A DNA stretch of 64,000 nucleotides from a virus. Of the stretch, positions 9,801 through 62,983 are shown in pieces. The notes below the pieces were generated by a model, which saw only the letters and a program-made list of their open reading frames with translations, ran no database searches and was not told where the DNA came from. The translations under genes were made by a program, and so were the position numbers. Where the stretch lies: positions 62,523-126,522 of the IMG/VR virus record IMGVR_UViG_3300030419_005541, one strand, 5' to 3'. Positions within the stretch are counted from its first letter, which is position 1; every line of letters begins with the position of its first letter.

Positions 9801-9965
9801 ACAATGGATAGTGAGAATTTAAACTCAGTATATAATTTATTTCAATTCTTAAAATCACAATTCAAATTTACTATGATTATCTCACATATAGACACTATGA
9901 GAGATGCAGTTGATACATTACTCGATATTAAAAAAGTAGACGGATTTAGTTCAGTTTCTTCATAG
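6843..9965 (+). CDS. Fused Mre11/SbcD nuclease and Rad50/SbcC ATPase (T4 gp47-gp46-like)
   Basis: Nuclease motifs SDIQ, GGDI, GNHD, HG and GDIH. ATPase elements are Walker A NASGKSS, a coiled coil with CEYC hook, signature LSSG, Walker B AIDEG and an ISH switch. Confidence 0.9.
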   Translation: MDKLKYIHHISDIQIRNLKRHKEYNEVFERTYREIEKYKDDAVVYIGGDIAHSKTDMSPELIKMLSDLFVNLADICPTILIAGNHDCNLNNLNRLDVLSPIVDNLKHPNLLYYKKGGIYPYADVNFVVWDVWDNPKNYLQAKDVPGDNKILLFHGTVDKSETDLGFKLPSDVKMSQMKGYDLVLLGDIHKRQFMNKAKTIAYCGSLVQQNHGEELGHGYLRWDVPTRKSTYVEIPNDYGYYTLDIDKGKVPDVTDMPKKARLRLRVKDTTSTNLKKAMKQIRDKYGIEEMTVTRTDRLLAEDKVRSDVINIGDVHDENYRFSLIDEYLKNNFMIDDDMSVGVSKINKYLQDYLKSSDVTRNLRWKLKKFEFSNMFSYGENNSVDFSKLNGIVGLFALNASGKSSLLDALTFCLYDKSSRAPRAKNVLNNKKETFHCKAELEIDGKPYFIERKAKLIKRTQHVKVDVDFWTVDDGGEKVSLNDEQRRTTDVNIRKYIGTYDDFILTSMSLQNNNTVFIDKTQKERKELMAQFMGLGVFDELYVLANQEVNEIQAILKEFEKSDYDVELSDIEKESKQYKKDLVDVEKNIVDLEKDLTDKEQELLSFTKQLKNIDETLDIKELEKEYEKVSEELDSVDEEHADANDKIEWVDNTIDNLESDLEDIGADDVETQFNKLSNLKSQKHEIKVEIDKLKIDVQNKLDKIKKLGDLQYDPDCEYCMDNVFVKDAIKTQQDLQTDKEISDELVKKFDDVEQQIDKLTEYEDKKDSLDKIVIELNQFRDSSKDLENKVSILSERITSLSGAKEVLDEKIEKYYKLESDMVFNEKINDKIEDAENDLANWRKSIKILLSGKSDMVSAIARLDSKKETIDENIKKIKKLESRYSAYKYFIEAVQRDGVPYELISKALPVVEGAVNDILAQIVDFQILFEMDGKNINCHIVYDEDNVWPLELSSGMERFISSLAIRVGLINVSNLPASDFLAIDEGWGTMDSENLNSVYNLFQFLKSQFKFTMIISHIDTMRDAVDTLLDIKKVDGFSSVSS

Positions 9966-9970
9966 CCTTA

Positions 9971-9978
9971 TATTTATA
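9971..9978 (+). promoter_or_regulatory. TATTTATA late-promoter-like motif
   Basis: Recurrent intergenic octamer, here about 40 nt upstream of the tail fibre gene. Confidence 0.55.
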
Positions 9979-10020
9979 TAAAACGAAGAGTACCTTTCGG
10001 GAGGAAAACGTTTAGATATT

Positions 10021-40422: not shown

Positions 40423-40925
40423 TGGCAAGCGCAACTGACAAAAGAAGAATTTTAGTAAATGCTGTTGTTTCATTGAAAGATGAAAGCAATAAAGCATCAG
40501 ACCTTGGATTTAGACATACACTTACAAGAAAAAGAAAACCATATAAACTAAATCTTAAAGATACATTATCTAATAGAAATGAAGATTTGTTATCTCACGG
40601 ACATATAAAAAGATATATAGAAGAAAAAACAATTTGTTTAAACAAACGTAAAATAGCAGTAGATTCTACAAAACAAACTTTTCAGTTAGATGTTCCTACA
40701 GGATATAAAACGGTTACCGGAAGTGTATCTTTTAAAGTGAACGGAGTAGAACAACATAGTACAGATAATCAAGCAACAGCGATGACATCAAGTATTGATT
40801 ATTTCATCGGTGACTCACCAAATTATGAATTTGTTTATTTATATAAACCTCGACAAGACCATAGTGGTTTGTTGGTAGATAATCGAGACTCCTTAATAAT
40901 TAATTATAGAGTGGAGAAAGCATAG
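40422..40925 (+). CDS. Structural protein, related to 39958..40422
   Basis: 'VNGVEQ...DYF...LYKP...D.LIINY' pattern, similar to the upstream gene. Confidence 0.45.
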   Translation: MASATDKRRILVNAVVSLKDESNKASDLGFRHTLTRKRKPYKLNLKDTLSNRNEDLLSHGHIKRYIEEKTICLNKRKIAVDSTKQTFQLDVPTGYKTVTGSVSFKVNGVEQHSTDNQATAMTSSIDYFIGDSPNYEFVYLYKPRQDHSGLLVDNRDSLIINYRVEKA

Positions 40926-43900
40926 TGGCTAAAATAGATTTAATAAGACAGGTAAAAGGACCGCAAACAGCATCAGTATATGTACGTACTACAGCTGTTA
41001 CGAGTTCACTTACAGGTGAATATGATTTAGAATTTGTACCTATTACAGGAATAAGTGCATCAGTAGATGGTCCTGCAATTAGTGGTTCTCTTTCTAAAGC
41101 ACATTTATCTTCAAAAGTACCTAATCTTGTAAGTGGCTCAGCACAAGTAAAAAGTTTATTACCCGCAGGAAGCGTAAGTAGTTCAGCACAGATATCAAGT
41201 TTAACAGGTGTTGTTAGTGGTTCAGCACAAATAGCTACAGATATTAGTGGTGCTTTTTCAGCACCAAGTGCTTCTTTTAGTACACGATTAACAACTGCAG
41301 AAACAGAACTATCTCTAACATTATTAAGTGGCTCAGCACAAGTAAAAAGTTTACTACCTGCGGGAACCGTAAGTAGTTCAGCACAAATATCAAATTTAAC
41401 AGGTGTTGTTAGTGCCTCAGGTCAACTTTCTTCAGATATTAGTGGTTCTCTTTCTAAAGCACATTTATCTTCAAAAGTACCAGGTGTAGTTAGTGGTTCA
41501 GCACAAATTAGGGCTGACATTAGTGGTTCTTGGACTCCATCAAGTGCATCATTTTCAACAAGATTGACAACTGCTGAATCAGAATTATCACTTACTTTAT
41601 TAAGTGGTTCAGCACAAGTAAAAAGTTTATTGCCTGCAGGAACAATAAGTAGTTCTCAGCAAATACGAAGCTTACCTAAGATGGAAGATAAAACAATTAA
41701 GATTTCACAAGTAGGTGGTGCAAATGTAAAAACTCTTGTAAACGAGTCTAATCAGCCTATCTTAAATGATGGTGATATTTTACAATGGAGTCTTTCAGAA
41801 GGACAATTTGTACAAAGACAAAGAATAATTAATCCAACTATGTCTTTTAATTCTTCTACAAATGGTTTGGCTATTCAAGGTGGTAACTCTGTAGACTTAT
41901 CAAGTCTTGCCGGAGGAGGCGGAGGCGGAGGCTCAGGTCTTGCTCTAACTGCTTCTAACGAAGGAAGTGCTTTAAGTAAAAACGTTAGAAGTATTAATTT
42001 TGTTGGTAGTGATATAACTGCATCAAATTCCGGAAACGCAGTAACGGTAACTTTAAGACAAACTCCATTTGATGGTAATCGTGTAGTGTCTAATCCAACT
42101 ATAGGACAATTATACTCTGACGAGTTTAATGCAGGTACTTCAGGGTCTATAGTAGACTTTTTGAATGGTATGTTTTTCCCAAATACAGCACCAACACTCT
42201 CAAGTAGTAAAATGGAGATAAATGAATTTGAAACAGGAAGTGCGGTTGTAGGAACAATAACCGCAACAGATGCTGAACAATCTTCTGCGAGTGGTACTTT
42301 GACTTTTGGTACAGGAAGTTACGCCGCAGCAGTTTTTCAAATACATAGTGGTAGTGGACAAATTACCGTAAGACCAGGTAAACATACATCTGCAAGTTTA
42401 AATATAACTAATCCAGGTGATGGCACACTTAGACACTCATTTCCTGCAACCGTTAGTGATGGAATTGTCACAAGCACTGCTAATATTTTTATTAGAATTA
42501 TACCAAACACCGCTCCTAAATTTAGAACAACAAGTGTAGGTGGTTCGATAATAACAAATCAAACGGGTAGTGTAAATGAAAACACAACAAATGGTACAAC
42601 GGTATCAACAATTTTTGTAACAGATAGTGAATCTGATACTCTTACAATTTCAGCATTAAGTCAAAGTGCTGGAAATAAATTTGCGATGGCAGTTGCGAAT
42701 GTAGCAGGTGGTAAAAGATTAACAATAACTACAAATACTTCAAGTTTTGATTTTGAGACTGCTACACAACATAATTTAGAAGTTAGTGCTTCTGACCAAC
42801 ATCACGGAAACACAAGTGGTAGCTATCTAACAACTTTACCAATAAGAGTAAATGTAGTAGATAACGTTTTACCGACTATGGGAAGTCACGCATTTAACGT
42901 TCACGAACATAGTGGTAGTAATGTTAACAACGGACTTGGAGCAAATACAAATAGTCAAACAAGAGTAGGTAATCTTACTGCTAATGACGCAGAAGGTGAT
43001 ACGATAACTTTTACAGGTTTAACCGTAACAAGTGGTAGTGGAAAGGGTAATACAAATCAAAGTAATCCTGCTAATGACCCTTTTCAAGTTTCAAGTACAG
43101 GTGAAGTTCAATTAAAAGCAGGTCAATATTTAAATGCTGATGTATTTAAACAATATAAATATAATGCAAGTTATAGAGACAATTTTAACAATGCAAGTTC
43201 GAGTGGTGTTATAACAATAAACATTTTACCTGAACCTGTACCAACTTTAACAAGTAATGCGCCTTTCTTTATGATAGAAAGTGGAGTTGCGACTAATACG
43301 GTGAGAGTTGGAACAGATGGTAGAAGTGGAGCAGTTGCTGATTTTAATTCTAACGCTACGGTTTCAATGAGTGTTAGTTCTTCAGGATTCTTTGCATTAA
43401 GTAGTGAAGGAAATTTATCACTCGCAACAAATGTTAGTGCGAGTACGTTTACATCCGGTAGTACTATAACAGGAGCAGTTAGTGCTTCTACGGCTTATGG
43501 TACGGTAGCAACTTCTTCATTTTCTGTCAAGATTACAAAGAATAATGCACCAACACCATCTTTCAGTAATACATCAGCTAACTTGAATACAAACGGTGCG
43601 AGACCAAGTAATACATTGACTACGATATCTTTTAGTGATGCAGAAAGTGATACTCTTGAACATCCTTCATTTGTATTCACAGACCCAAGTGGTCAGTTAG
43701 ATACAAACAAAGTCGGTAACACATATCAAGTAAGAGCAGAGACTAATTTAAGTGCATCTGTTTATCAGATGACAGCATCTATAAAAGATGAACACGGATT
43801 TAATACAGGAACTACAAAACACACAATAACGATAGCACAAGCAGGTTCAGGGTCAATGACTACAAATGGCACGTTTCGTATACGAGATACTGCAACAAGT

Positions 43901-44731
43901 GGTTCAAAAATAGTAACTGCGGCAGATGGCGACCCAACAGGAACACAAGGTGATTTAGGAGTTACATATTCACCAAACTATAACTCACAAGCAGTACAAA
44001 ACTTTACATCTTCAAATGCCGCTATACATATTGCAGACAACGGTAATTTGACCGTTAAACAGAACTTTGGTGGAGCAGGAAAACAAGCAGGAGATACTCT
44101 TACATCTACGATTAACTTTCAAGACCAATTTGGAAACTTTGGAACAGGTTCATTAACTCTTAATGTCGTAGCGACACCAAACTTAGTTTACGGTTATGGT
44201 TGGTCAGGTGGTAGTGCGGCAGCAGAATCTACTGCGATAGCATCTATGGGTGATTCAGGTGCAGATGGAGATGCAATCACAAGTGGTAGTGTAATAGCTA
44301 TGTTACAAAGTGGTTCGTTAGGAAGTACATTTACACCTTCTTATGTTGGAGGTGCGATGACATTACATAAGAGTGCTTCTTTAGCAACTATGTCTGATTC
44401 AAGTGGAAACGGAATCTCAGATTTAGGTCATTTTAATTTTTCAAGTCTTTCACAAAGAACAATAATAATATTTGCTTCAGCTTCAAATCAAGCAGGAAAA
44501 CCAAGAAGTATGTACGATGGAGTACCACCCGATTCGACAGGTACTGATAAAGAATATTATTTATATGCAAAAGATGCCTCAATTCCAGGAACTATGCAAA
44601 CAGGAATTTATTATTTTAATATAAAAACTCCGATAAATGGAGTTTCAAGGTGGGGTATGATTTTTGGTGAAGGTAAAAACACTAATAATTCACGGTATTT
44701 CTTGATGCCTGATTCGGCATCAGCACCTTAA
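40925..44731 (+). CDS. Large fibre/adhesin with N-terminal SGSAQ repeats and cadherin-like repeats
   Basis: GTG start. The repeats 'N.AP.(F/L)...(I/V)NE...G..V.T...D.E.D.(L/I)T' recur about four times. Confidence 0.65.
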   Translation: MAKIDLIRQVKGPQTASVYVRTTAVTSSLTGEYDLEFVPITGISASVDGPAISGSLSKAHLSSKVPNLVSGSAQVKSLLPAGSVSSSAQISSLTGVVSGSAQIATDISGAFSAPSASFSTRLTTAETELSLTLLSGSAQVKSLLPAGTVSSSAQISNLTGVVSASGQLSSDISGSLSKAHLSSKVPGVVSGSAQIRADISGSWTPSSASFSTRLTTAESELSLTLLSGSAQVKSLLPAGTISSSQQIRSLPKMEDKTIKISQVGGANVKTLVNESNQPILNDGDILQWSLSEGQFVQRQRIINPTMSFNSSTNGLAIQGGNSVDLSSLAGGGGGGGSGLALTASNEGSALSKNVRSINFVGSDITASNSGNAVTVTLRQTPFDGNRVVSNPTIGQLYSDEFNAGTSGSIVDFLNGMFFPNTAPTLSSSKMEINEFETGSAVVGTITATDAEQSSASGTLTFGTGSYAAAVFQIHSGSGQITVRPGKHTSASLNITNPGDGTLRHSFPATVSDGIVTSTANIFIRIIPNTAPKFRTTSVGGSIITNQTGSVNENTTNGTTVSTIFVTDSESDTLTISALSQSAGNKFAMAVANVAGGKRLTITTNTSSFDFETATQHNLEVSASDQHHGNTSGSYLTTLPIRVNVVDNVLPTMGSHAFNVHEHSGSNVNNGLGANTNSQTRVGNLTANDAEGDTITFTGLTVTSGSGKGNTNQSNPANDPFQVSSTGEVQLKAGQYLNADVFKQYKYNASYRDNFNNASSSGVITINILPEPVPTLTSNAPFFMIESGVATNTVRVGTDGRSGAVADFNSNATVSMSVSSSGFFALSSEGNLSLATNVSASTFTSGSTITGAVSASTAYGTVATSSFSVKITKNNAPTPSFSNTSANLNTNGARPSNTLTTISFSDAESDTLEHPSFVFTDPSGQLDTNKVGNTYQVRAETNLSASVYQMTASIKDEHGFNTGTTKHTITIAQAGSGSMTTNGTFRIRDTATSGSKIVTAADGDPTGTQGDLGVTYSPNYNSQAVQNFTSSNAAIHIADNGNLTVKQNFGGAGKQAGDTLTSTINFQDQFGNFGTGSLTLNVVATPNLVYGYGWSGGSAAAESTAIASMGDSGADGDAITSGSVIAMLQSGSLGSTFTPSYVGGAMTLHKSASLATMSDSSGNGISDLGHFNFSSLSQRTIIIFASASNQAGKPRSMYDGVPPDSTGTDKEYYLYAKDASIPGTMQTGIYYFNIKTPINGVSRWGMIFGEGKNTNNSRYFLMPDSASAP
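41078..41660 (+). repeat. In-frame imperfect tandem/dispersed repeats in the fibre gene
   Basis: 'ISGSLSKAHLSSKVP' occurs twice, 'SASFSTRLTTAE.ELSLTLL' twice and 'SGSAQVKSLLPAG' three times, with high DNA identity. Confidence 0.8.
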
Positions 44732-48467: not shown

Positions 48468-51400
48468 ATGGTCGGTGGATTCGGATTTTTAGACGAATTA
48501 AAATTCAATACTGAATTTAATACTACTAAAAGTACAAGTACTTCTAAGAACACCACCTTAGCCACTTCTACATCAAAAGCTACTGCTACTTCAAAAAGTA
48601 CAATTACTACTTTTAATACTACAAAAGAAACTACTACAACTTATAATACTACCAAGTCAACTATAACGACTTTTGATACAACTCTAAGTACTGCTACTTC
48701 AAAATCAACGTCAACTTCAAAAAGTACGTCTACAACTTTTAACACTACGTTAGAAACTATTACTGCCTACAACACTACGTTAGAAACTATTACTACCTAC
48801 AACACTACGTTAGAAACTATTACAACTTACGAAACAACTAAGAGTACTATAGAATCAAGAGCAACTGCTACTTCGAAAGCAACTATTACGACTTTTAATA
48901 CCACGTTAGAAACTATTGAATCTCGTGCTACTTCTACATCGAAAAGTACGATTACAACTTTTGAAACGACTTTAGAAACTATCACGACATATAATACTAC
49001 TCTGAGTACGATAGAAACACGGGCGACATCCACCTCAAAGTCCACCATAACTACTTTTAATACTACGTTAGAAACAATTACAACTTATGAAACTACTCTG
49101 AGTACTATTGAACAGCGGTCCACGGGTACTTCTAAGTCAACTATAACTACTTTTAATACTACGTTAACAACTATCACAACTTTTGAAACTACGTTAAGTA
49201 CGATAGAAACACGGGCGACATCCACCTCAAAAAGTACGATTACAACTTATGAAACTACTCTGAGTACCATTGAACAACGAGCCACCTCTACTTCAAAAAG
49301 TACTATTACCACGTATAATACAACATTAGCAACTATAACAACTTATGAAACTACTCTGAGTACTATTGAATCTCGGGCTACTTCGACCTCAAAAAGTACG
49401 ATTACAACTTATGAAACTACATTAGAAACTATTGAAACTCGTGCTACTTCGACTTCAAAAAGTACAATTACTACTTTTGAAACTACATTGGCAACTATTA
49501 CTACCTATGAGACTACTCTGAGTACGATAGAATCAAGAGCAACCTCTACTTCAAAAACTACGATTACAACTTTTATTACTTCGAAGAGTACTATCACAAC
49601 TTATAATACTATTACAACTTATAGTACGATAACGACTTATAATACTACCTTAGCAACTATTACAACTTACAATACTATAAAAGAAACCACCACAACTTTT
49701 GATACAATTACAACATATTCTACAATTACAACTTATGAAACTTCTAAGTCAACAATTACGACCTATAATACTATTACAACTTATAGTACGATAACGACTT
49801 ATAATACTACAAAAAGTACGACAACAACTTTTAGTACTATTACAACTTATAGTACAATTACAACGTATAATACCACTTTAGCAACTATTACAACTTACGA
49901 AACTTCTGTAAGTACTATTGAATCGAGGTCCACAGGTACATCAAAATCTACGATTACTACTTACAACACTACATTGGCAACTATTACAACCTATGAGACT
50001 TCTAAAAGCACAATAGAAACAAGGGCAACGTCTACTTCGAAATCAACTACTACAACTTATAATACTATAAAAGAAACTACTACGACTTTTAGTACTATTA
50101 CAACTTATAGTACAATTACAACGTATAATACCACTTTAGCAACTATTACAACGTATGAAACGACTAAGAGTACTATTGAGCAGAGGTCTACTTCTACTTC
50201 AAGAGCTACGATTACAACTTTTATTACTTCGAAGGCAACTATTACGACTTATAATACTACCCTAAGTACCATTGAGCAGAGGTCTACTTCTACTTCAAGA
50301 GCTACTATTACAACTTTTAATACTACTAAGAGCACCACAACTACTTATAATACTATTACTACTAAAGCAACTATAACTACTTTTGAAACTTCTAAAAGTA
50401 CAATAGAAACAAGAGCTACTTCTACATCGAAAAGCACGAGTACAACTTATGAAACCACATTAAGTACAATAGAAACGAGGTCTACAGGTACATCAAAAAG
50501 TACTACAACGATTTATTCTACCGCGACTACAAAAGAAACTACTACAACTTATAATACTACGAAAAGTACGACTACTGCGTATGCTACTTCTACTACAAAA
50601 GAAACTACTACAACTTATAATACTACGGCAAGTACGACTACCGCATATGCTACTTCTACTACAAAAGAAACCACTACAACATTTGGTACAATTACGGTTT
50701 ATAGTACAATTACAACGTTTAATACAACATTGGCAACTATTACAACGTATAATACAACGTTGGCAACTATTACAACTTATAATACTATTACCACAAAGAG
50801 TACAATTACAAGTTATAATACTATTACTTCGAAAACTACGATTACAACTTTTAATACTTCTAAAAGCACAATAGAAACAAGAAGTACGATTACATCGAAA
50901 ACTACAAGTACAACTTATAATACTACTTTAGCAACTATTACAACTTATAATACTTCTAAAAGTACAATAGAAACAAGAAGTACGATTACAACTTTTATTA
51001 CTTCAAAAAATACAATTACAGAGTTTTCACAAATTACTATTTTTTCTACGATTACAACAAGAATTACAACGAGAGAAACAGATACGGTTTATGAAACATC
51101 TAAGTCAACTACCACGACTTATATAACTTCAAAATCGACTACAAGAAGCACTCTTGAAGTAAAAAGTACAACTACAACTTATAATACTACGAAAAGTACG
51201 ATTACATCATATCTTTCAAGTTTTAATACGATTACTTCGAAGAATACTACTACCACAAGGAGTACAGCTACTTCAAAAAATACAACTACTATTTATGCTA
51301 CGATTACAACGTTTAATACCAATACTTCAAAAACCACGGTTTTCAATACTACTAAAAATACCGTAAACGCAACTATTTATGGAACGTATAGAAATACTAC

Positions 51401-54400
51401 TACGATTTTCAACACAATTAAATCTACAACGTATAAAACATATTTCTTTACCTTTGACCCAAGGTCAGGTGGTGAGATAACAAGTAGAAATACCAGCAGA
51501 AATACAACTAAATCTACTTCGAGAACTACATCTACTTTACTTGCAATTACAATGAGGATTACAACTTTTATCACTACGAAAAGTACCTCAAGAACTACAA
51601 CTTATAGTACCGCAACTACTCGAAGCACCATTGAATCAAGAAATACGAGTACAACTTTTGGTACTATTACAAGTTTTGATGTAATTACTATTTTTGCTAC
51701 GATTACCGCAAAGAATACTTCTCGTGAAACGGATACGGTTTATAATACCACCAAGTCAACTATTACAAGTTATAATACCATTACCACGTATATTACAAGT
51801 TATAATACAAGTAAAACAACTATTACAACTTATAATACCACCAAGTCAACTATTACAAGTTATTTGACTGCTTTTAATACAATTACTTCTAAAAGCACTA
51901 TAACATCGAGGTCTACAGCAACTTCGTATAATACTACTTTGAGTACGATTACTACGTATTCTACTACTACCACGTATAATACTACTTTGAGTACAATTAC
52001 AACTTATAATACTTCAAAAGATACAACTACTATTTATGCTACGATTACAACTTATAGTACGATAACGACCTATAATACTATAAAAGAAACAACCACGACT
52101 TATTCTACTATTACCACGAAGAGTACAATTACTGCGTATGCTACTATTACTACAAAAGAAACAATAACGACTTATAACACCACCAAGGAAACAATTACAA
52201 CATATAATACTACTCTGAGTACTATTGAACAGCGGTCAACATCTACCTCGAGGATAACTATAACAACGTATAATACTATTACTTCAAAAAGTACAATTAC
52301 AACTTATAATACAAGTAAAACAACTATTACAACGTATAATACTATTACTTCAAAAAGTACAATAACTACGTATAATACTACTTTAACAACTATTACAACT
52401 TATAATACGATTACTTCGAAGAGTACGATTACCTCGTATAATACTATTACAACGTATTCTACCATAACTACCTATAATACTTCTAAGAATACGATTACAA
52501 CTTATAATACTATTACAACGTATTCTACTATAACTACCTATAATACTACTTTAGAAACAATTACTGCGTATGCTACTATTACTACAAAAGCTACAATAAC
52601 TACATATAATACCACGTTAGAAACTATTACGACTTTTAGTACCACTACAACTTATAGTACAATAACGACCTATAATACTACAAAAGAAACTATTACAAGT
52701 TATAATACTACATTAGAAACTATTACGACTTTTAGTACCACTACAACTTATAGTACGATAACTACTTACAACACTACGTTGGAAACTATTACGACTTATA
52801 ATACTACCCTAAGTACTATTGAACAAAGAGCAACTTCTACTTCGAAAACTACGATTACGACTTTTAATACTTCTAAGTCAACTATAACAACGTATAATAC
52901 AATTACAACGTATAGTACAATTACGACCTATAATACCACGTTAGAAACTATTACAACTTATAATACTACTAAGTCAACTATTACAAGTTATAATACTATT
53001 ACGGTTTATTCTACTATAACTACTTTTAATACCACGTTAGAAACAATTACAACCTACGAAACTACGTTAAGCACTATTGAGCAGAGGTCAACAAGTACAT
53101 CTAAAAATACGATTACAACTTTTAATACTACCTTGAGTACTATTGAGACAAGGGCAACTTCTACTTCAAAAAGTACAACTACTACGTATAATACAACACT
53201 AAGTACTATTGAACAAAGAGCAACCTCTACTTCAAAAACTACTATAACTACTTTTAATACCACGTTAGAAACAATTACAACTTATGAAACTACATTAAGT
53301 ACTATTGAGACCAGGTCTACAAGTACTTCAAAGAGTACAATTACAAGTTATAATACTATAAAAGAAACTATCACGACTTATAATACTATAACGACTTACA
53401 GCACAATTACGACCTATAATACCACGTTAGAAACTATTACAACTTATAATACGACCTTAAGTACAATTACAACTTTTGATACAATTACAACTTATGCGAC
53501 TATAACAACCTATAATACTACTAAGTCAACAATTACAACTTACAACACGATTACAACTTATAGTACGATAACTACTTACAACACTACGTTGGAAACTATT
53601 ACAACTTACGAAACGACTAAGAGTACTACAACTACTTATGATACAATTACAGCATATTCAACTATAACAACGTATAATACTACCAAGTCAACTATTACGA
53701 CTTACAACACGATTACAACTTATAGTACAATTACAACGTATAATACTATAAAAGAAACTACCACAACTTATAATACTACAAAGAGTACGATTACAAGTTA
53801 TAATACTATAACGACTTATAGTACAATTACAACTTATAATACAACATTGGCAACCATTACAACGTACAATACTACTAAGTCAACAATTACGACCTATAAT
53901 ACTATTACAACTTATAGTACAATTACAACGTATGAAACGACTTTGGCAACTATTACGACTTATAATACTACGAAGTCAACTACTACGACTTTTGATACAA
54001 TTACAGCTTATGCAACTATAACGACTTATGAAACTACGTTAGAGACTATTACGACTTATAATACTATAACGACTTATAGTACAATTACAACGTATAATAC
54101 CACTTTAGCAACTATTACAACGTATGAAACGACTTTGGCAACTATTACAACGTATGAAACGACTTTGGCAACTATTACAACTTTTGAAACTTCTAAGTCA
54201 ACTATAACTACTTTTAATACTACTACGGTATATAATACAATAACAACTTACAATACCACTAAGTCAACTATTACAACCTATGAAACGACTTTGGCAACTA
54301 TTACGACTTATGAAACTACAAAGAGTACTATTACGACTTATAATACTATAACTACTTTTGATACAATTACAGAATATACTACCGTATATGATACGATAAC

Positions 54401-54440
54401 AACTTTTACCACAACTCGAATAACAAGTTATTACTTCTGA
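48468..54440 (+). CDS. 1990-aa Thr-rich self-complementary repeat protein (predicted giant beta-hairpin filament)
   Basis: Uninterrupted ORF with AGGAG SD, built from 4- and 6-residue units. The single Pro (DPRSGG, aa 997-1002) lies at the symmetry centre. Confidence 0.85.
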   Translation: MVGGFGFLDELKFNTEFNTTKSTSTSKNTTLATSTSKATATSKSTITTFNTTKETTTTYNTTKSTITTFDTTLSTATSKSTSTSKSTSTTFNTTLETITAYNTTLETITTYNTTLETITTYETTKSTIESRATATSKATITTFNTTLETIESRATSTSKSTITTFETTLETITTYNTTLSTIETRATSTSKSTITTFNTTLETITTYETTLSTIEQRSTGTSKSTITTFNTTLTTITTFETTLSTIETRATSTSKSTITTYETTLSTIEQRATSTSKSTITTYNTTLATITTYETTLSTIESRATSTSKSTITTYETTLETIETRATSTSKSTITTFETTLATITTYETTLSTIESRATSTSKTTITTFITSKSTITTYNTITTYSTITTYNTTLATITTYNTIKETTTTFDTITTYSTITTYETSKSTITTYNTITTYSTITTYNTTKSTTTTFSTITTYSTITTYNTTLATITTYETSVSTIESRSTGTSKSTITTYNTTLATITTYETSKSTIETRATSTSKSTTTTYNTIKETTTTFSTITTYSTITTYNTTLATITTYETTKSTIEQRSTSTSRATITTFITSKATITTYNTTLSTIEQRSTSTSRATITTFNTTKSTTTTYNTITTKATITTFETSKSTIETRATSTSKSTSTTYETTLSTIETRSTGTSKSTTTIYSTATTKETTTTYNTTKSTTTAYATSTTKETTTTYNTTASTTTAYATSTTKETTTTFGTITVYSTITTFNTTLATITTYNTTLATITTYNTITTKSTITSYNTITSKTTITTFNTSKSTIETRSTITSKTTSTTYNTTLATITTYNTSKSTIETRSTITTFITSKNTITEFSQITIFSTITTRITTRETDTVYETSKSTTTTYITSKSTTRSTLEVKSTTTTYNTTKSTITSYLSSFNTITSKNTTTTRSTATSKNTTTIYATITTFNTNTSKTTVFNTTKNTVNATIYGTYRNTTTIFNTIKSTTYKTYFFTFDPRSGGEITSRNTSRNTTKSTSRTTSTLLAITMRITTFITTKSTSRTTTYSTATTRSTIESRNTSTTFGTITSFDVITIFATITAKNTSRETDTVYNTTKSTITSYNTITTYITSYNTSKTTITTYNTTKSTITSYLTAFNTITSKSTITSRSTATSYNTTLSTITTYSTTTTYNTTLSTITTYNTSKDTTTIYATITTYSTITTYNTIKETTTTYSTITTKSTITAYATITTKETITTYNTTKETITTYNTTLSTIEQRSTSTSRITITTYNTITSKSTITTYNTSKTTITTYNTITSKSTITTYNTTLTTITTYNTITSKSTITSYNTITTYSTITTYNTSKNTITTYNTITTYSTITTYNTTLETITAYATITTKATITTYNTTLETITTFSTTTTYSTITTYNTTKETITSYNTTLETITTFSTTTTYSTITTYNTTLETITTYNTTLSTIEQRATSTSKTTITTFNTSKSTITTYNTITTYSTITTYNTTLETITTYNTTKSTITSYNTITVYSTITTFNTTLETITTYETTLSTIEQRSTSTSKNTITTFNTTLSTIETRATSTSKSTTTTYNTTLSTIEQRATSTSKTTITTFNTTLETITTYETTLSTIETRSTSTSKSTITSYNTIKETITTYNTITTYSTITTYNTTLETITTYNTTLSTITTFDTITTYATITTYNTTKSTITTYNTITTYSTITTYNTTLETITTYETTKSTTTTYDTITAYSTITTYNTTKSTITTYNTITTYSTITTYNTIKETTTTYNTTKSTITSYNTITTYSTITTYNTTLATITTYNTTKSTITTYNTITTYSTITTYETTLATITTYNTTKSTTTTFDTITAYATITTYETTLETITTYNTITTYSTITTYNTTLATITTYETTLATITTYETTLATITTFETSKSTITTFNTTTVYNTITTYNTTKSTITTYETTLATITTYETTKSTITTYNTITTFDTITEYTTVYDTITTFTTTRITSYYF

Positions 54441-55495: not shown

Positions 55496-56914
55496 ATGAA
55501 AGAAATTTCAGTTTCAAATATAACATTTGGTGGTGAAGATACACCTCTAATAGCAGGACCTTGTGTTGTTGAGACATACAAACTTGCTACTGATGTTGCA
55601 AAACAACTTGTGAAGATAGGAGAAAAAACAAACACTCCTATAATTTATAAAAGTTCTTTTGATAAAGCAAATCGTTCTTCTAATTCATCTTACAGAGGAC
55701 CTGGAATAGAAAAAGGATTAGAAGCACTTAGACGAGTAAAAGATGAAACAGGATTACCTGTTCTTACTGATATACACGAAGTTCATCACGTAAATGAAGT
55801 AGCAGAAGTTGCTGATATATTACAAATACCTGCTTTTTTATGTAGACAAACAGACTTGATAAAAGCCGCAGCACAAACCGGTAAAGTAGTAAATGTAAAA
55901 AAAGGTCAATTTTTGTCACCTTGGGAAATAGAAAATGTAATAATAAAAATTACAGAAGAAGGTAATGAGAATATTTTGATTACAGAACGTGGAACACAAT
56001 TTGGATATCAGAATCTTGTTGTTGATATGAGGTCAATTCCTATTATGCAACAATTCGGATTTCCTGTTATCTTTGATGCTACGCATAGCAATCAACTTCC
56101 TGGCGGAAACGGAACATCTACAGCAGGTATGAGAGATATGGTGCCTTATTTAGCTAAAGCGGCGGTGGCAGTTGGATGTGATGGATTGTTTTTCGAAACA
56201 CATCCTGACCCTAAAAATGCTAAATCTGATGCGTCAACACAATGGCCTTTAGATGAGTTAGAAGAAGTTATTTCAAATCTAAAAATGAAACCAGCTAAGG
56301 TAGTCGATTCCGCTCCTAGTCGAAATTTAAGAGAAAGTCAAGCAAAAACTTACATAAAATCATTAAAAGAAAAAAGTTTAAAACATAGAACTATAGATTT
56401 TAATGATATGGAAGAAAAAGAAGAAAAATCCGTAAGTAATAAAAAACCTTCACCTAATTCATTTGAAAGCACCGTTGTTCATTTGATGAATGAACGTGAA
56501 TTGACCGAGAGAATAAATATTGATTCTGAAAGTGAATATGCTAAATTAGATTTAGATAAAAAATACCAAACCGTTGTTTCAGATAAATATCTTGATACTT
56601 TAAATCCATTAGAAGTAGATGAAGTATTAGTTCAAATATTTAATATAGCAGAACGTTTAATAGTTTTACATCTTGAACCAGCAAGAAGACCTGTACAATG
56701 GTGGATGGATAAGTTTCAGTTTTTAAGAGAAAGACACGACCAAGAAGAACTAAACATATTTGTAGTTTTTGATGCTAAACCTAATGAACTTAAAATGATT
56801 ACGTTGCCTAACGACTATCATCAAAAGAAAAAACAACAAGAAGAGAGACTAAAAGGAAAGCGCGTTCCATTTGTTTCGTGGAGAGATAATAATAAACCTA
56901 AACCAAGGATGTAA
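55496..56914 (+). CDS. kdsA: KDO-8-phosphate synthase with a ~200-aa C-terminal extension
   Basis: 'IAGPCVVE', 'KSSFDKANRSS', 'QIPAFLCRQTDL', 'NVKKGQF', 'ERG..FGY', 'FDATHS.Q.PG' and 'ETHPDP..A.SD'. Confidence 0.92.
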   Translation: MKEISVSNITFGGEDTPLIAGPCVVETYKLATDVAKQLVKIGEKTNTPIIYKSSFDKANRSSNSSYRGPGIEKGLEALRRVKDETGLPVLTDIHEVHHVNEVAEVADILQIPAFLCRQTDLIKAAAQTGKVVNVKKGQFLSPWEIENVIIKITEEGNENILITERGTQFGYQNLVVDMRSIPIMQQFGFPVIFDATHSNQLPGGNGTSTAGMRDMVPYLAKAAVAVGCDGLFFETHPDPKNAKSDASTQWPLDELEEVISNLKMKPAKVVDSAPSRNLRESQAKTYIKSLKEKSLKHRTIDFNDMEEKEEKSVSNKKPSPNSFESTVVHLMNERELTERINIDSESEYAKLDLDKKYQTVVSDKYLDTLNPLEVDEVLVQIFNIAERLIVLHLEPARRPVQWWMDKFQFLRERHDQEELNIFVVFDAKPNELKMITLPNDYHQKKKQQEERLKGKRVPFVSWRDNNKPKPRM

Positions 56915-56915
56915 T

Positions 56916-57260
56916 ATGCACACAGCAGGAAAAGTATGGGGCAAAACAGCTAATATATTTTCTAATCCTAACTTTGAAGTACATAGGATTGAAGTAAATA
57001 AAGGCGGATTCTGTTCTAAACATAAACACAAATATAAATTCAATGCTTTTTATGTAGAAAGTGGTGAATTAGAAATTATAATTTATAAAAATGACTACGA
57101 TTTAGTAGATACTACGGTTCTTAAAGCAGGTGATATGACGATTGCTAAACCAGGTGAATATCATAGTTTTAAAGCAAATGCAAAAACAATTTGTTATGAA
57201 CTTTATTGGGTAGAATTAAATCACAACGATATTGAAAGAGAATCTGTAGGCGGTATTTAG
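56916..57260 (+). CDS. Cupin-fold protein (sugar isomerase-like)
   Basis: ATG at 56916; motifs 'KVWG', 'CSKHKH..K...FYVESG.L' and 'PGEYHSF'. Confidence 0.7.
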   Translation: MHTAGKVWGKTANIFSNPNFEVHRIEVNKGGFCSKHKHKYKFNAFYVESGELEIIIYKNDYDLVDTTVLKAGDMTIAKPGEYHSFKANAKTICYELYWVELNHNDIERESVGGI

Positions 57261-58069
57261 TGTTATCAGTTCCTATTCAAAATCTTGTAAAAGATAAAAG
57301 AGTTATCATTGTAGGTAATTCTGTAGAAATGATGAAACACGAATATGGTGATTTTATTGATTCTTTTGATATTGTTGTTCATTTAGGTGCGGCTATCACA
57401 AGAGGTAAAAAATTTTACAAACATCTTGGAAGTAGAACTGACATATGGGCTACCGGTACATTCAGATTTGATTGTTATTGGGATTGTGAAGAGGATTTTA
57501 TCAGTGGTAGATATAAAGATACTATGGTATTATTTAATAGAGCAAGAACTAAATTATTAAACGTAGATGCTATAGCTCATTTTGAAAATCAATTACCACA
57601 AATACCAAGAAAAGATATGTTTTGTGATGTAGAACTTATAAACTTGTTAGATGAATTTAACTATTTAGATGGATTTGGTGATGGATACAGAGGACCTAAA
57701 AACGGAATGAGACCATCAGGCGGATTTATAACTATTTTATATTTTATTAGAAAAGTACAAACTTATAAAAGTTTAGATATAATAGGTTTTGATTTTTTTA
57801 GAAAAACAACGGATGTTTATAGAAAAAAACCAAACGATGAAACAAAAGGAGCTGTGCCATTTAGTTGGTATATGCCTATGAGGTCTGCAACAACAGGTAG
57901 CCATCCACATAATAAAACATTAGAATTTGATTATGTTAAAAAATTAGAAAAAGAAAACAAAATAAATTGGAATGTACTAACTGATTTAAAAGATAAAGTA
58001 GTAAAGTACGATGGATGGTTAGAAGGGTCTGAACAATGGAATAGAGGTATCACAAAAAGTGATTCTTGA
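57260..58069 (+). CDS. GT29 (sialyltransferase-like) glycosyltransferase
   Basis: Sialylmotif-L-like 'VIIVGNS......G.FIDSFDIVV......GSRT', S-like 'PSGGFITI...IIGFDFF' and VS-like 'HNKTLE'. Confidence 0.7.
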   Translation: MLSVPIQNLVKDKRVIIVGNSVEMMKHEYGDFIDSFDIVVHLGAAITRGKKFYKHLGSRTDIWATGTFRFDCYWDCEEDFISGRYKDTMVLFNRARTKLLNVDAIAHFENQLPQIPRKDMFCDVELINLLDEFNYLDGFGDGYRGPKNGMRPSGGFITILYFIRKVQTYKSLDIIGFDFFRKTTDVYRKKPNDETKGAVPFSWYMPMRSATTGSHPHNKTLEFDYVKKLEKENKINWNVLTDLKDKVVKYDGWLEGSEQWNRGITKSDS

Positions 58070-58970
58070 CAATAAACACAGCTTTCTTCAATATAGAAAA
58101 GACCAAGAGAAGAAACATTTAAAATTAATTAAAAATACTACTAATCCTTTACATAGTATTCTAACGGTTGAAATGAATCTTACAGAATTATGTAATAGAA
58201 AATGTGTTTTTTGTCCACGACACGACCCTAAAGTATATCCTAACAGAAACTTGAACACAACTATTGAAGACGCAACTACTATAGCAAAACGTTTAGCAGA
58301 TTTTGATTACTTTGGTAGAATATCATTTAGTGGATTTGGAGAAAACTTTTTAAATAAACAATTTAACGAAATTGTACACGCTATGAGAAAAGAATTACCT
58401 ACTAATGTATTTGAATGTAACACAAATGGTGATTTTTTAAACAAAAAAACCGTTACAGAAATATACGAAAATGGTATGGATATGTTGTACATAAATTTAT
58501 ACGATGGTCTTGAACAAATAGACCCTTTTGTAAAGATAATGAAAGAAGCAGGTATACCTGAAGAAAATTATAAATTACGAGCGCATCATACACAAGACGA
58601 ATGGGGATTATTTGTAAATAATAGAAGCGGTCTTATAGATTGGATAGGGTTTGATGAGGATGATATTGAAAATTTAAAAGGCACAAAATGTCACTATCCG
58701 TATTACAAAATGTTTGTGGATTGGAATGGTGATGTATTGTTCTGTTCTAATGATTGGGGTAGAGAAATAGTAATTGGTAATCTAATTGAAAGTTCTGTTA
58801 TGGATGTTTGGATGGGTGAAGAGATGAAAAAAGTTCGTGATAGACTTTCAGTAGGAGATAGAAGTCACAGCCCGTGTAATACGTGTTCAGTAAAAGGTGA
58901 CTTATTTGGAGAACCAAGTTTTAACTTAATTAATGAGTATTATGAGAGTAGCGATAACAGGTCACACTAA
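58059..58970 (+). CDS. Radical SAM protein with SPASM/twitch domain
   Basis: 'CNRKCVFC', 'FSGFGE', 'NTNG' and C-terminal 'C..P....VDWNGDV..C..D...C..C'. Confidence 0.85.
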   Translation: MILDNKHSFLQYRKDQEKKHLKLIKNTTNPLHSILTVEMNLTELCNRKCVFCPRHDPKVYPNRNLNTTIEDATTIAKRLADFDYFGRISFSGFGENFLNKQFNEIVHAMRKELPTNVFECNTNGDFLNKKTVTEIYENGMDMLYINLYDGLEQIDPFVKIMKEAGIPEENYKLRAHHTQDEWGLFVNNRSGLIDWIGFDEDDIENLKGTKCHYPYYKMFVDWNGDVLFCSNDWGREIVIGNLIESSVMDVWMGEEMKKVRDRLSVGDRSHSPCNTCSVKGDLFGEPSFNLINEYYESSDNRSH

Positions 58971-59508
58971 CGGATTAGGTAAAGAATTATATAATCGTCT
59001 TTACGATATGTATCCTTTTGAAGTTCATGGATTTTCTCGTACAAACGATTATGATGTTTCCGACAATTATGAAAGAGCAAAGATAATTTTAAAGATAGAA
59101 GAATGTGATTTGTTTATTAATAATGCACATCCATTGTTTGACCAAACACGTATGTTAATGGAAGTGTTTGATAAGTGGAAATATGAAGATAAAACTATTG
59201 TTAATATAATTAGTAGAGCAAAGTATGACAATATATCTAAAGGATTTATGTATTCTGCTTCTAAAGCATCATTATCACATCTTTCACATAATTTAAGATT
59301 TAACACAGATAAAAAATGTAAGATAATTGATGTAAATCCAGGACTACTTGAATCAGCCTTATCAAGTTTAACTTATAAAGAGATGGCAGATATTGTTATG
59401 TGGTGTATTAATCAACCAAAACATATTGAAATAGGTGAAATATCTGCTTGGCATAGAGATTCATATGTTGAGGTACAAAAAGAAAAAGCAAAACTCTTTA
59501 AAAAATGA
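58942..59508 (+). CDS. Short-chain dehydrogenase/reductase
   Basis: 'VAITGHTNGLG', 'FINNA' and 'YSASK'. The start is 58942 or 58933. Confidence 0.8.
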   Translation: MRVAITGHTNGLGKELYNRLYDMYPFEVHGFSRTNDYDVSDNYERAKIILKIEECDLFINNAHPLFDQTRMLMEVFDKWKYEDKTIVNIISRAKYDNISKGFMYSASKASLSHLSHNLRFNTDKKCKIIDVNPGLLESALSSLTYKEMADIVMWCINQPKHIEIGEISAWHRDSYVEVQKEKAKLFKK

Positions 59509-60565: not shown

Positions 60566-62983
60566 ATGGCAGAAAGAATTGTAAGCCCCGGTGTATTTAC
60601 CGAGGAAAAAGATTTATCATTCTTGCCGCAGGGTATTGCAGAGATTGGACCTGCAATTATCGGTCCAACTTTAAGAGGCCCCGCATTTACTCCAACGGTA
60701 ATCACAAGTTCTGACGACTTTATAAAGAAGTTTGGACCAATTGGCGGTAAACTACCATATTATGCAGGCATTACAGCACAACGTATGCTTGATAATGGTG
60801 CCCCAAGTGTTACTATCGTTAGAGTATTAGGCATAGGAGGATATTCCGTTGATGCAGTCAACATAAGTGTTAAAGCTGGCGAAGAAAACGCGGGTAAAGT
60901 TTTAGCAACTTTAGCACCATCTAATAAAGCAGGTGCGGGTACAGGAGATTTAAGTGCAACTAAAGTAGGTCAGTTAGCAGCCCACTCGCAGAGTGCAGGA
61001 ATAGTATCAGGTTCCGGAGATATACGATTGTTTATTTCAGGTTCTGATGTAGCACAAGAAATCGTACAAGGATTCCGTGTAGATGGTGGTACAAATTCTG
61101 TATCTGATGACGCACAAGACACTAACTTTTCAGCATATGTGTATAAAAACTATAACTCAGCAGGTGATGTAATTGCGAGTATGAATGCTACTGCATCTGT
61201 ATCTCATTCTTATCACACTCTTGATTTTTCAGGCGGTTCACAATCTTATGGTGCAAATGGAAATGCAGGAACTTGGACAGGTAATAGTTCTTACTCTGTA
61301 GCAAGAACACCTTATATCCAATCACAGAAGTTTGGAAGCGCAAGAAAGAATCTATTTAGAGTTTACACACGTGGCTATGGTAATGAGATGAATAAAAATT
61401 ATCACATTGCTATTCAAAATATTAAAGCCGCATCTAATTCAAATGTAGCACCTGGATATGCTCAGTTTGATTTGGTTGTTTTCCAATATAACGCAGACCA
61501 AAATAGCTATACGTCAATAGAGACTTTTTCAGCTCTAAGTTTTGACCCTGAAAGTAATAGCTATATTGTTAATCAGATTGGTGATGGATTTGAAGTTTGT
61601 GATTCAAATGGTAATCTTACAAAATATGGTCTATATGGAAATAAGTCTGATATCATTCGTATAGGTGATTACACTTTATTGCCTTCCGTTGATAAGTCAA
61701 CCGCACCTATGGGTTGTGGCGCTGTTCAAAATCCAGGACCTGGTGGAATAAACGTACCTGTTGCTTCATTAGTAACAAGTGCTGATACAGATGGTCAATT
61801 TGATGCAGGTAAGTATTATGGATTTGATTTCAATACTGCTCATCATTTGAATCAACAATATTTAGCACCTATTCCTGCAACAGCAACTGCTGGAGCTAAC
61901 ACATCAATGTCTCTTGAAGATATGACAGGTACTGCACAAAGCGGATTAACAGGATATGCTGATAGTTCTACAAAGTTAAGTTTAGGTTCAGGAACTAATG
62001 TAAATCAGCGTAAATTTAAAGTTCCATTTCAGTGGGGCTTTGATGGTGAGAATCCTGCGCGTAACATATACTTTAATGGTGACATTGTATCAACTAACCA
62101 ACAGGGTTTTGATTGTTCAACATCAACCTCAAGTGGTTCAGTTGCTTATAATCAGGCATTAGGTACAATTAAAGACCCGGATTTTGTTGATATCAATATG
62201 ATATTAACACCAGGTATTATACACGAATATCATCCTGTTGTTAGTAATAGAGCTAAGAGTATAGTTAAGAATCGTGGAGATGCTTTCTATATTATGGATG
62301 GTTCACGTTGGGGAGCATCAGTTAGTAATGCTGTATCTAACGTAGCAGGTGTAGATAACAATTATGTTGCTACTTACTTTCCTTGGGTTAGAATACTTAA
62401 TCCAGGAGGCGGTGCTCAGATTTGGGTTCCACCATCAGTAGTAATGGCAGGTGCTTATGCGAACAACGATAGTATCGGACAAGAGTGGTTTGCTCCCGCA
62501 GGTCTGAATCGTGGTTTGATAGCGGCACAGGATGTTAAGAAAATCTTAACACATACAGACAGAGATGAATTGTATGATGGTAGAGTTAATCCAATTGCTT
62601 CTTTCCCAGGACAGGGTATTGTAGCATTTGGTCAAAAAACTCTACAAGCAAGACCATCTGCTCTTGATAGAGTTAATGTTCGTAGATTGTTAATTAACTT
62701 GAAGAAGTTTATTGCATCATCTTCAAGATTCTTAGTATTCGAACAAAATACTGCGGCAACAAGAAATCGTTTCTTGAACATTGTCAATCCTTATATGGAA
62801 TCAGTACAACAACGTTCAGGTCTTTCGGCTTTCAGAGTAGTAATGGATGACTCCAATAATACTCCTGAAGTAGTAGATAGAAACCAATTAGTTGGTCAAA
62901 TCTTCGTACAGCCTACAAGAACTGCTGAGTTTATTGTACTTGACTTTGTTGTTCTGCCGACAGGAGCGGCATTCCCGGAGTAA
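60566..62983 (+). CDS. Tail sheath protein (T4 gp18-like)
   Basis: 'SPGVFTEEKD', 'WFAPAGLNRG', 'GQKTLQ', 'RVNVRRL' and 'FEQN...P.RTAEFI'. Confidence 0.95.
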   Translation: MAERIVSPGVFTEEKDLSFLPQGIAEIGPAIIGPTLRGPAFTPTVITSSDDFIKKFGPIGGKLPYYAGITAQRMLDNGAPSVTIVRVLGIGGYSVDAVNISVKAGEENAGKVLATLAPSNKAGAGTGDLSATKVGQLAAHSQSAGIVSGSGDIRLFISGSDVAQEIVQGFRVDGGTNSVSDDAQDTNFSAYVYKNYNSAGDVIASMNATASVSHSYHTLDFSGGSQSYGANGNAGTWTGNSSYSVARTPYIQSQKFGSARKNLFRVYTRGYGNEMNKNYHIAIQNIKAASNSNVAPGYAQFDLVVFQYNADQNSYTSIETFSALSFDPESNSYIVNQIGDGFEVCDSNGNLTKYGLYGNKSDIIRIGDYTLLPSVDKSTAPMGCGAVQNPGPGGINVPVASLVTSADTDGQFDAGKYYGFDFNTAHHLNQQYLAPIPATATAGANTSMSLEDMTGTAQSGLTGYADSSTKLSLGSGTNVNQRKFKVPFQWGFDGENPARNIYFNGDIVSTNQQGFDCSTSTSSGSVAYNQALGTIKDPDFVDINMILTPGIIHEYHPVVSNRAKSIVKNRGDAFYIMDGSRWGASVSNAVSNVAGVDNNYVATYFPWVRILNPGGGAQIWVPPSVVMAGAYANNDSIGQEWFAPAGLNRGLIAAQDVKKILTHTDRDELYDGRVNPIASFPGQGIVAFGQKTLQARPSALDRVNVRRLLINLKKFIASSSRFLVFEQNTAATRNRFLNIVNPYMESVQQRSGLSAFRVVMDDSNNTPEVVDRNQLVGQIFVQPTRTAEFIVLDFVVLPTGAAFPE

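Follow-up and report, generated by a model that had tools for sequence, protein, structure and literature searches.

How can two halves of one gene, read from the same strand, encode protein arms that are complementary to each other in reverse order over about a thousand residues each, and what kind of protein would they build? This question is raised by a giant gene in a 64,000-nucleotide stretch of virus DNA, positions 62,523 to 126,522 of IMG/VR record IMGVR_UViG_3300030419_005541, which we refer to at its full length as the window. The window is the 3′ half of a linear virus record of 126.5 kb with an estimated completeness of 72%. The gene is an open reading frame (ORF) for 1990 amino acids (aa) on the plus strand at 48468..54440. 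An earlier reading of the DNA alone, here called the original prediction, had set the limits slightly inside this ORF (48504-54434), and the residue numbering used there fits the ORF start. Threonine accounts for 44% of the encoded protein (872 residues) and, together with 226 serines, for 55%. The protein further contains 201 Ile, 140 Tyr and 51 Phe (191 for the two aromatic residues together), 91 Lys, 42 Arg, 60 Leu, 11 Gly, a single Pro and neither Cys, His nor Trp. Based on the patterns in this sequence and its relatives, we consider it likely that the gene product is one giant antiparallel beta-hairpin, and a structural protein of a marine T4-like myophage.

The symmetry described in the original prediction was confirmed and proved more pronounced than had been stated there. 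A single rule relates the two halves of the protein: residue i corresponds to residue 2001-i along the entire chain, with the centre of symmetry at 1000.5. The rule can be followed in a set of residues that we term anchors (Y, F, L, K, R, V, M and W). Among residues 1-1000, 188 anchors stand at odd and 15 at even positions; among residues 1001-1990, 183 are even and 12 odd. Isoleucine occupies the parity opposite to the anchors in 88 of 88 cases in the first half (arm 1) and in 112 of 113 in the second (arm 2). This period-2 alternation, which is what a beta-hairpin would produce, is held for about 1000 residues per half, and its phase flips mid-chain. The motif DPRSGG, with the only Pro of the protein and a Gly pair, lies at the symmetry centre, where the chain of a hairpin would have to reverse. 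Neighbouring anchors are spaced by four or six residues (122 sixes and 61 fours in arm 1, 121 and 59 in arm 2). The spacings form units of 22 aa (6-6-6-4) and 10 aa (6-4) in an aperiodic order, AAAABABAABABAAAB..., and super-repeats of 22, 32, 54 and 86 aa are present. A quasi-periodic (Sturmian-like) 4/6 order was considered and rejected, as the anchor positions are no more regular than those of shuffled spacings (residual standard deviation 2.3-3.6 versus a mean of 3.35).

When arm 1 is reversed and its anchors are compared with those of arm 2, 179 of the 183 arm-2 anchors coincide at i+j=2001; from the termini towards the turn, 133 of them follow one another without a gap. A scan of 1600 pairing sums revealed 182 anchor-anchor matches at 2001, compared to 126 at the next best sum and a mean of 31.7 (standard deviation 20.5). 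When the 182 arm-2 modules were shuffled one thousand times, matches averaged 70.6 (standard deviation 9.0) and reached at most 100, or 110 when the best of ±60 registers was allowed. The kind of anchor is constrained as well: Tyr or Phe faces Lys, Arg or Leu in 179 of the 182 anchor pairs, where 51% would be expected (binomial probability 7.5e-48), and the like-with-like exceptions comprise one aromatic-aromatic pair and two pairs without an aromatic residue. The anchor face also holds 274 Thr:Thr pairs, and the other face consists of 63 Ile:Ile pairs and small polar pairs. In the true register, 179 pairs are correct and 3 like-with-like, versus 98 and 19 in the best alternative within ±200; the 4/6 order and the choice between aromatic and non-aromatic anchors therefore single out one register. 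The suggestion that the aperiodic order serves as a barcode against misregistered pairing is compatible with these data.

The original prediction had further stated that modules keep fixed partners wherever they occur, and counts for four module types agree with it. RATSTS lies opposite [ND]TIT[TA]Y in 9 of 9 cases, LATITT opposite ETITTY in 8 of 9, YSTITT opposite STIE[QT]R in 6 of 6 and L/KSTIE[TQ] opposite STITTY in 9 of 10. The rare module RETDTVY was found, as had been claimed, at residues 869-875 and 1086-1092 and KSTITSYL at 909-916 and 1126-1133, and each RETDTVY opposes KSTITSY under i+j=2001. There are two such pairs because a direct repeat of about 90 aa flanks the turn symmetrically. 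At its offset of 217 aa, 36 of 60 residues are identical in the best segment, compared to at most 27 at other offsets, and nucleotide identity is 64%; the two copies are symmetric about the turn and pair with each other. We also observed a second-order rule, in which L-A-TITT in arm 1 faces E-TITTY (8/9) and L-E-TITT in arm 1 faces A-TITTY (4/4). It looks as if one Glu were wanted per rung pair.

The symmetry is confined to the protein level, as had been proposed: the DNA of the giant gene contains 0 inverted repeat pairs, and its direct repeat copies are mostly 60-76% identical. Both arms use the same-strand Thr codons, with frequencies in arm 1 and arm 2 of 0.49 and 0.45 for ACT, 0.27 and 0.26 for ACA, 0.15 and 0.17 for ACG, and 0.08 and 0.11 for ACC. 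Synonymous codons vary between units, and codon identity at identical residues is 0.363. On both of these points the earlier description was accurate. The periods reported by Tandem Repeats Finder form an additive series of 30, 36, 66, 96, 162 and 258 nucleotides (30+36=66, 30+66=96, 66+96=162, 96+162=258), which reflects the nested 10-aa and 22-aa units and no strict quasi-periodic order. GC skew is strongly negative (-0.25 to -0.40) across the giant gene only and positive elsewhere in the window. This is a by-product of the ACN- and TAY-rich codons and carries no replication signal. A scan for promoters and terminators gave nothing informative.

To place the protein among its homologues, relatives were located in IMG/VR and metagenome loci via scans with the giant protein, its two neighbours and the N-terminal motif. 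The proteins flanking the giant gene are 60-96% identical among these relatives, whereas the giant gene itself is much more variable. Eight distinct complete sequences were obtained, with 1676, 1786, 1990, 2169, 2951, 3298, 3309 and 3418 aa, and four distinct types (1786, 1990, 3309 and 3418 aa) are in one register from the paired termini, or foot, to the central turn, or tip. For the 1990-aa protein of the window, the pairing sum is 2001, with 179 of 182 anchor pairs joining an aromatic to a non-aromatic residue (hetero pairs) around the turn DPRSGG. The same turn occurs in the 1786-aa type (L004 and L018, two contigs differing by 2 aa), which has a pairing sum of 1797 and 142 of 148 hetero pairs. 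The 3309-aa type (L006; six IMG/VR contigs with 0-1 aa differences) pairs at a sum of 3320 with 259 of 266 hetero pairs and the turn GNGPGGSP, and the 3418-aa protein (L001) at 3430 with 270 of 272 and the turn DPFRGP. In all four, the pairing sum exceeds the length by 11 or 12, the Pro/Gly turn is central, and the last residue has the homologous Leu near the N-terminus (residue 11 or 12) as its partner, which leaves an overhang of 10-11 residues. The local register is 0 in almost every 80-aa segment of these proteins.

The termini are conserved across the types (M..G(A)FGFLDELKF[NS]TEFNTTK at the N-terminus and the last ~40 residues, ending in ...TSYYF or ...SYYVS), and the tips differ. A further Pro/Gly-rich central turn among the homologues is FPFYNPPF; overall, Pro/Gly stands at the centre in four of five tip types, and Pro is absent from the turn of a fifth, near-complete type (L120/L017). 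Every tip type places an aromatic-rich strand before the turn opposite a Lys/Arg-rich strand after it. The L017/L120 protein was also observed to carry His where the others have Lys or Arg (e.g. ...TSTSH...), together with the turn LARGKWK and the end ...GYYYS. In some contigs (L002 and L016, which are one contig, and L118), the giant gene is split into two frames, for example 1246 aa and a continuation in another frame, or 1146 and 2227 aa; these are frameshifts or assembly errors within the repeats.

Since four homologue lengths obey the same rule end to end, the length changes were mirrored, and the comparative data support the earlier proposal that both arms grew in this way. The window protein and the 1786-aa protein L004 are 67% identical, with 35 gap events and a net excess of 102 aa per arm in the window protein. 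Over the first ~400 residues, the running offsets between the two are equal step by step in both arms (0, -2, -12, -2, +8), and near the turn they amount to 102/102, 100/100 and 102/102. Mid-arm offsets differ, in a region where the alignment is ambiguous, and equal offsets were found at 60% of 765 compared positions. A second comparison involves L125, which is 99.9% identical to L004. Here, each arm differs by one block of 22 aa, at 568 in arm 1 and at 1209 in arm 2; residues 568-589 mirror onto 1208-1229. Both L004 blocks are one copy of a tandem pair with 94% nucleotide identity. We read them as two duplications that arose as a pair and are equally old; they lie about 1.9 kb from each other and are polymorphic between near-identical phages. 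The youngest tandem arrays in arm 1 of the window protein (aa 92-121 and 686-729) likewise both have young mirrors in arm 2 (aa 1880-1909 and 1272-1315).

Substitutions follow the same pattern. At 86 reliably aligned anchor rungs of the window protein and L004, 63 are unchanged, 6 are swapped on both sides (e.g. Y:K to R:Y), 16 have a non-aromatic partner that turned into a non-anchor, and 1 shows a one-sided class change. The partners across the two arms thus co-vary, as those of a hairpin should, in their hetero pairing, in 6 double swaps versus 1 one-sided change and in the mirrored indels. Nested duplication of whole hairpins, which the original prediction had offered as an alternative route of growth, fits the ~90-aa repeat at the tip. 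Since paired indels are spread over the entire protein, with partners separated by ~2-5 kb of DNA, the tip was not the only site of growth.

We interpret the two arms as two long beta strands because of the period-2 alternation, the dominance of beta-branched and aromatic residues, the scarcity of Pro and Gly, and the cross-strand Thr:Thr, Ile:Ile and aromatic:cation pairs. Such pairs are favoured in antiparallel sheets. In the proposed structure, ~990 residues would run out, reverse at DPRSGG and run back, with i paired to 2001-i. One face would carry a ladder of Tyr/Phe versus Lys/Arg/Leu rungs separated by Thr:Thr, and the other Ile:Ile and small polar pairs. The dense aromatic strand opposite the dense Lys/Arg strand beside the turn could nucleate the zipping of the arms. 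A slip in one arm would create a bulge, which a later tandem duplication or deletion of the partner segment could cancel, comparable to compensation in RNA stems. The conserved N- and C-termini may jointly form the foot that docks to the virion, with the variable tip distal. More speculatively, several hairpins may pack via their Ile faces, and the Thr/Ser surface may be O-glycosylated by enzymes for 3-deoxy-D-manno-octulosonic acid (Kdo) encoded next to the gene.

On balance, we lean towards a new fibrous class, namely a kilo-residue self-complementary beta ribbon ('protein duplex'). Its register would be set by a binary code of aromatic versus aliphatic/cationic residues and by the aperiodic 4/6 spacing, it would evolve like an RNA stem, and the length of a 0.3-0.6 µm, maybe Kdo-coated appendage would be tuned in steps of 10-22 residues. 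A protein architecture of this kind seems not to have been described previously; literature searches, which covered listings and the openings of abstracts, returned no description of such a protein.

All sequence statistics require only that residue i meets residue 2001-i, and the two need not belong to the same chain. The arms might instead pair between chains, in a domain-swapped dimer or higher oligomer, which would give a rod up to twice as long. We regard this as unlikely and prefer the intrachain hairpin, because Pro and Gly are scarce elsewhere and yet exactly central in four of five tip types, where a continuous strand would need none, and because the dense aromatic/cationic pairing beside the centre resembles a hairpin nucleus. 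A different explanation would be a disordered mucin-like glycoprotein or spacer whose symmetry reflects the mutational history of its repeats only. The 55% of Thr and Ser, the adjoining glycosylation-type genes and the failure of structure predictors to return a fold would suit such a protein. However, mutation alone cannot hold arms that lie kilobases apart complementary through 35 gap events and double swaps, and the single Pro, the 201 Ile, the 191 Tyr and Phe and the strict alternation are the opposite of a mucin composition, which renders this explanation very improbable. Marginally less credible still is a beta-solenoid or stacked-repeat fold of the ice-binding or ice-nucleation TxT type with an incidental mirror symmetry. 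The high Thr content, T-x-T rows, Tyr ladders and super-repeats bring such proteins to mind, but a solenoid needs a constant coil length, whereas the 22-aa and 10-aa units here are aperiodic. Moreover, regular turn residues are absent, and a solenoid would leave the reversed-arm match, the aromatic rule, the central Pro and the mirrored indels unexplained.

Several observations weigh against the giant hairpin and the mirrored growth of its arms. The anchor set was picked after viewing the sequence. Four of the eight distinct complete assemblies, all of them singletons, have unequal arms with discrepancies of 66-358 aa: arm 2 of L019 has 76 aa extra near the foot, arm 1 of L112 has ~110 aa extra, arm 1 of L115 (contig coverage 3.9) is without 218 and 140 aa and otherwise 100% identical to L006, and in L125 an unpaired 66 aa are missing at 1452 in arm 2. 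Public reads (4 of 24 listed runs, from 4 studies) gave only contig pieces of 200-500 bp within the giant gene, which lend no independent support to its repeat order. As regards the duplication histories of the arms, mirrored tandem units were not significantly more correlated in their synonymous-site similarity than circular shifts, of which 37/408 (period 22), 71/369 (period 32) and 160/444 (period 10) reached the observed value. Offsets from global alignments also fail to track each other in the long homologues (r=-0.33 for L001/L006 and r=-0.12 for L006/L019). Finally, an AlphaFold2 model of residues 801-1200, based on a 7-sequence alignment, was unusable, with a mean predicted local distance difference test score (pLDDT) of 28 and a predicted template modelling score (pTM) of 0.15.

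Regarding these points, the repeat alignments of the long homologues are ambiguous and their offsets uninformative. All four unequal-arm sequences keep the register next to the foot and next to the tip, and the excess would therefore form an internal bulge. These four singletons may represent collapsed repeats. In the four runs, no small indels were listed inside the gene, and all joints had sides of at most 32 letters, except for one of 98 upstream of the gene start. That the whole pattern is an artefact of short-read assembly, as the highly repetitive gene, the short public contig pieces and the resemblance of some relatives to collapsed assemblies might suggest, is barely conceivable, since misassembly would destroy and not create protein-level complementarity without a DNA inverted repeat, contigs that are independent of each other and of four different lengths obey the pairing rule, and six contigs share identical sequences.

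The AlphaFold2 model drew short strands at 983-989 and 1013-1019 beside the turn (pLDDT 31-38), which we did not count as support, and a two-chain complex prediction of residues 241-360 and 1641-1760 gave no answer (score 0.02). An HMMER-based search with the whole protein, in which 7999 candidates of 1094-3483 aa were scored, yielded no match with E<=0.001; composition correction probably hides the family. No Pfam family was assigned to the giant protein, a sequence search of the PDB returned nothing meaningful (best E 0.81), and the ESM Atlas contained no model of it (best scores 0.81-0.84, below the meaningful level). Neither megablast with 14 kb nor tblastn with the central 400 aa, with the low-complexity filter on, produced a match among 50,697 phage records. 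Homology to a fibre family was thus not detected in the Pfam, PDB and tblastn searches. Matches of the N-terminal motif in 16 bacterial or archaeal genome contigs were dismissed as chance, since none of the 16 has a Thr-rich ORF.

The source virus is a T4-like marine myophage. Among the genes of the window, nearly all of them on the plus strand, are those for a major head protein of T4 type (35735-37342; phrog_138, E 8e-74), an adaptor (gp13-like), a sheath stabiliser (gp15-like) and the tail sheath (60566-62983). The head protein shares 52-54% identity with its counterparts in Flavobacterium phage Immutovirus, Microcystis phage Mel-JY01 and an uncultured 484-kb phage; from the capsid relatives, marine Flavobacteriia may be guessed as the probable hosts. 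Read runs containing the region derive from marine, estuarine or freshwater metagenomes of 9 studies, and at least half of the sampled words were present in 20 runs of 9 studies. The giant gene is located within the structural module, among fibre-like genes, with the neck genes (gp13-like adaptor and gp15-like) on one side, the tail sheath on the other and a gene for a fibre-like protein of 212 aa adjoining it. In the cultured relative Immutovirus the corresponding slot holds tail-fibre and structural genes. Because of this position, the fibre-like neighbour, the conserved foot and the variable tip, the product is probably a virion fibre. At ~0.33 nm per residue, its extended length would be ~330 nm for the window protein, ~300 nm for the 1786-aa homologue and ~570 nm for the 3418-aa homologue; twisting would shorten these values.

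Known proteins offer partial analogies. In the needle of the T4 long-tail-fibre protein gp37, the chains run to the tip and fold back, with long antiparallel strands in the shaft and both ends together; this needle domain has ~200 residues, is an obligate trimer with metal-binding His and forms part of a multi-domain protein. The predicted hairpin would resemble it as an out-and-back phage fibre with both chain ends at one end, whereas here the whole protein of 1786-3418 aa would be a single out-and-back strand pair with an aromatic versus Lys/Arg/Leu code. The single-layer rods of staphylococcal SasG and Borrelia OspA and designed beta-hairpins with aromatic-cation and Thr-Thr pairs across the strands would be comparable in their elongated beta structure, which is stabilised by cross-strand pairs and has no conventional hydrophobic core. 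They have tens of residues per strand and consist of tandem domains or peptides, and none of them is known to have ~1000 rungs in a row or arms evolving together through paired indels. In mechanism only, the arms would recall an RNA stem-loop, with antiparallel complementary distant segments, double substitutions and balanced insertions, but in a protein polymer with a binary alphabet and 4/6 spacing and no templated copying between the arms. Like the coiled coil of T4 fibritin, the protein would be a long phage appendage whose fold is laid down as a spacing code with stutters (3/4 there, 4/6 here), yet with predicted strands and not helices, antiparallel intrachain pairing and no heptads.

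If the fold is real, this would be by far the longest beta-hairpin known and a natural protein whose long-range register is set by a simple, readable pairing code. For protein design, it would provide rules for programmable beta ribbons of set length, and for folding it poses the question of how ~1000 rungs zip without misregister. In terms of molecular evolution, compensatory indels several kilobases apart in one gene would be the protein counterpart of RNA stem covariation and could be measured in metagenomes. For phage biology, it predicts sub-micrometre fibres on marine myophages, with lengths that vary nearly twofold between close relatives and should affect host encounter. For glycobiology, the linkage to Kdo genes makes it conceivable that a virion protein carries an acidic sugar.

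The features of the giant gene and its neighbours are listed in the table.

Table. Positions (within the window) of the giant gene, its parts and the genes adjoining it.
Feature	Position	Strand	Remark
Upstream neighbour, 212 aa	47812..48450	+	Syntenic in all relatives whose contig reaches this far
Whole giant gene, Thr-rich 1990-aa protein	48468..54440	+	ORF and composition
Overhang at the N-terminus, aa 1-10 (MVGGFGFLDE); belongs to the conserved foot and is unpaired	48468..48497	+	Motif kept in all homologues
Arm 1, aa 11-996; anchors odd, Ile even; modules of 4 and 6 residues	48498..51455	+	
Young 10-aa x3 tandem array in arm 1, aa 92-121 (NTTLETIT[AT]Y)	48741..48830	+	95% matches
Young 22-aa x2 tandem duplication in arm 1, aa 686-729	50523..50654	+	Period 66, 94% matches
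Arm-1 copy of the ~90-aa direct repeat with RETDTVY...KSTITSYL, aa 845-937	51000..51278	+	
Central turn DPRSGG, aa 997-1002, with the only Pro of the protein	51456..51473	+	
Arm 2, aa 1003-1990; anchors even, Ile odd; complementary to reversed arm 1; end ...TSYYF	51474..54437	+	
Arm-2 copy of the ~90-aa direct repeat, aa 1062-1154	51651..51929	+	
Arm-2 mirror of the 22-aa x2 duplication, aa 1272-1315	52281..52412	+	Period 66, 85% matches over 52256-52453
Arm-2 mirror of the 10-aa array, aa 1880-1909 (LATITT[YF]ET[TS] x3)	54105..54194	+	Near-identical at synonymous sites
Downstream neighbour, 323 aa	54515..55486	+	Always directly after the giant gene
KdsA (Kdo-8-phosphate synthase, residues 5-263) with an extra ~200-aa C-terminal part	55496..56914	+	
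WbuC-like cupin (below cut-off), GT29 sialyltransferase-like glycosyltransferase, radical SAM/SPASM protein, short-chain dehydrogenase	56871..59508	+	

Within the giant protein, the first paired residue, L11, faces the C-terminal F1990. The gene order around it is common to all relatives: the 212-aa gene is followed by the giant gene, the 323-aa gene, KdsA, the cupin, the GT29-like gene, radical SAM and short-chain dehydrogenase genes where present, two small genes and the sheath. The N-terminal ~100 aa of the 212-aa protein occur in 70 viral loci, including records of ~147 kb, and its variable C-terminal half weakly resembles the C-termini of tail fibres. It has the look of a modular adaptor or a short fibre.

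No family of Pfam or NCBIfam matched the 323-aa protein. A comparison of its AlphaFold2 model (pLDDT 64.4, pTM 0.69) with PDB structures gave seven matches with E<=0.001, all of them chains of KrkA (best E 3.8e-5, TM score ~0.3), followed by WbbB and KpsC with E values of 3e-3 to 9e-3. The modelled fold thus appears closest to Kdo transferases (GT99/GT107-like); KrkA, WbbB and KpsC are its best model matches, yet at a TM score of only ~0.3 and a pLDDT of 64. Distant relatives of this protein, with 22-25% identity, were noticed among hypothetical proteins in records of Vibrio phage KVP40-like and Caulobacter phage Cr30.

The KdsA assignment exceeds two equivalog cut-offs, with 397.7 bits for NF003543 (cut-off 242) and 389.9 bits for TIGR01362 (cut-off 314). 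A cytidine monophosphate (CMP)-Kdo synthetase (KdsB) and an SIS isomerase were not found in the 72%-complete record. In every relative examined, the sugar cluster is conserved beside the giant gene, though the radical SAM and short-chain dehydrogenase genes are missing in L017, L116 and L120. Because all of these relatives are close, the co-occurrence hints only weakly at a linkage between the cluster and the giant gene. It may tentatively be speculated that the adjacent enzymes glycosylate the Thr/Ser-rich ribbon with Kdo, which we consider possible but doubtful.

Also encoded in the structural module, at 40925-44731, is a protein of 1268 aa in which a cadherin domain was recognised (E 3.6e-9); L001 and L002 have much shorter genes in its place. 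Two more very large ORFs, of 1040 and 2199 aa, lie upstream of the giant gene, within positions 6843-16620 of the window.

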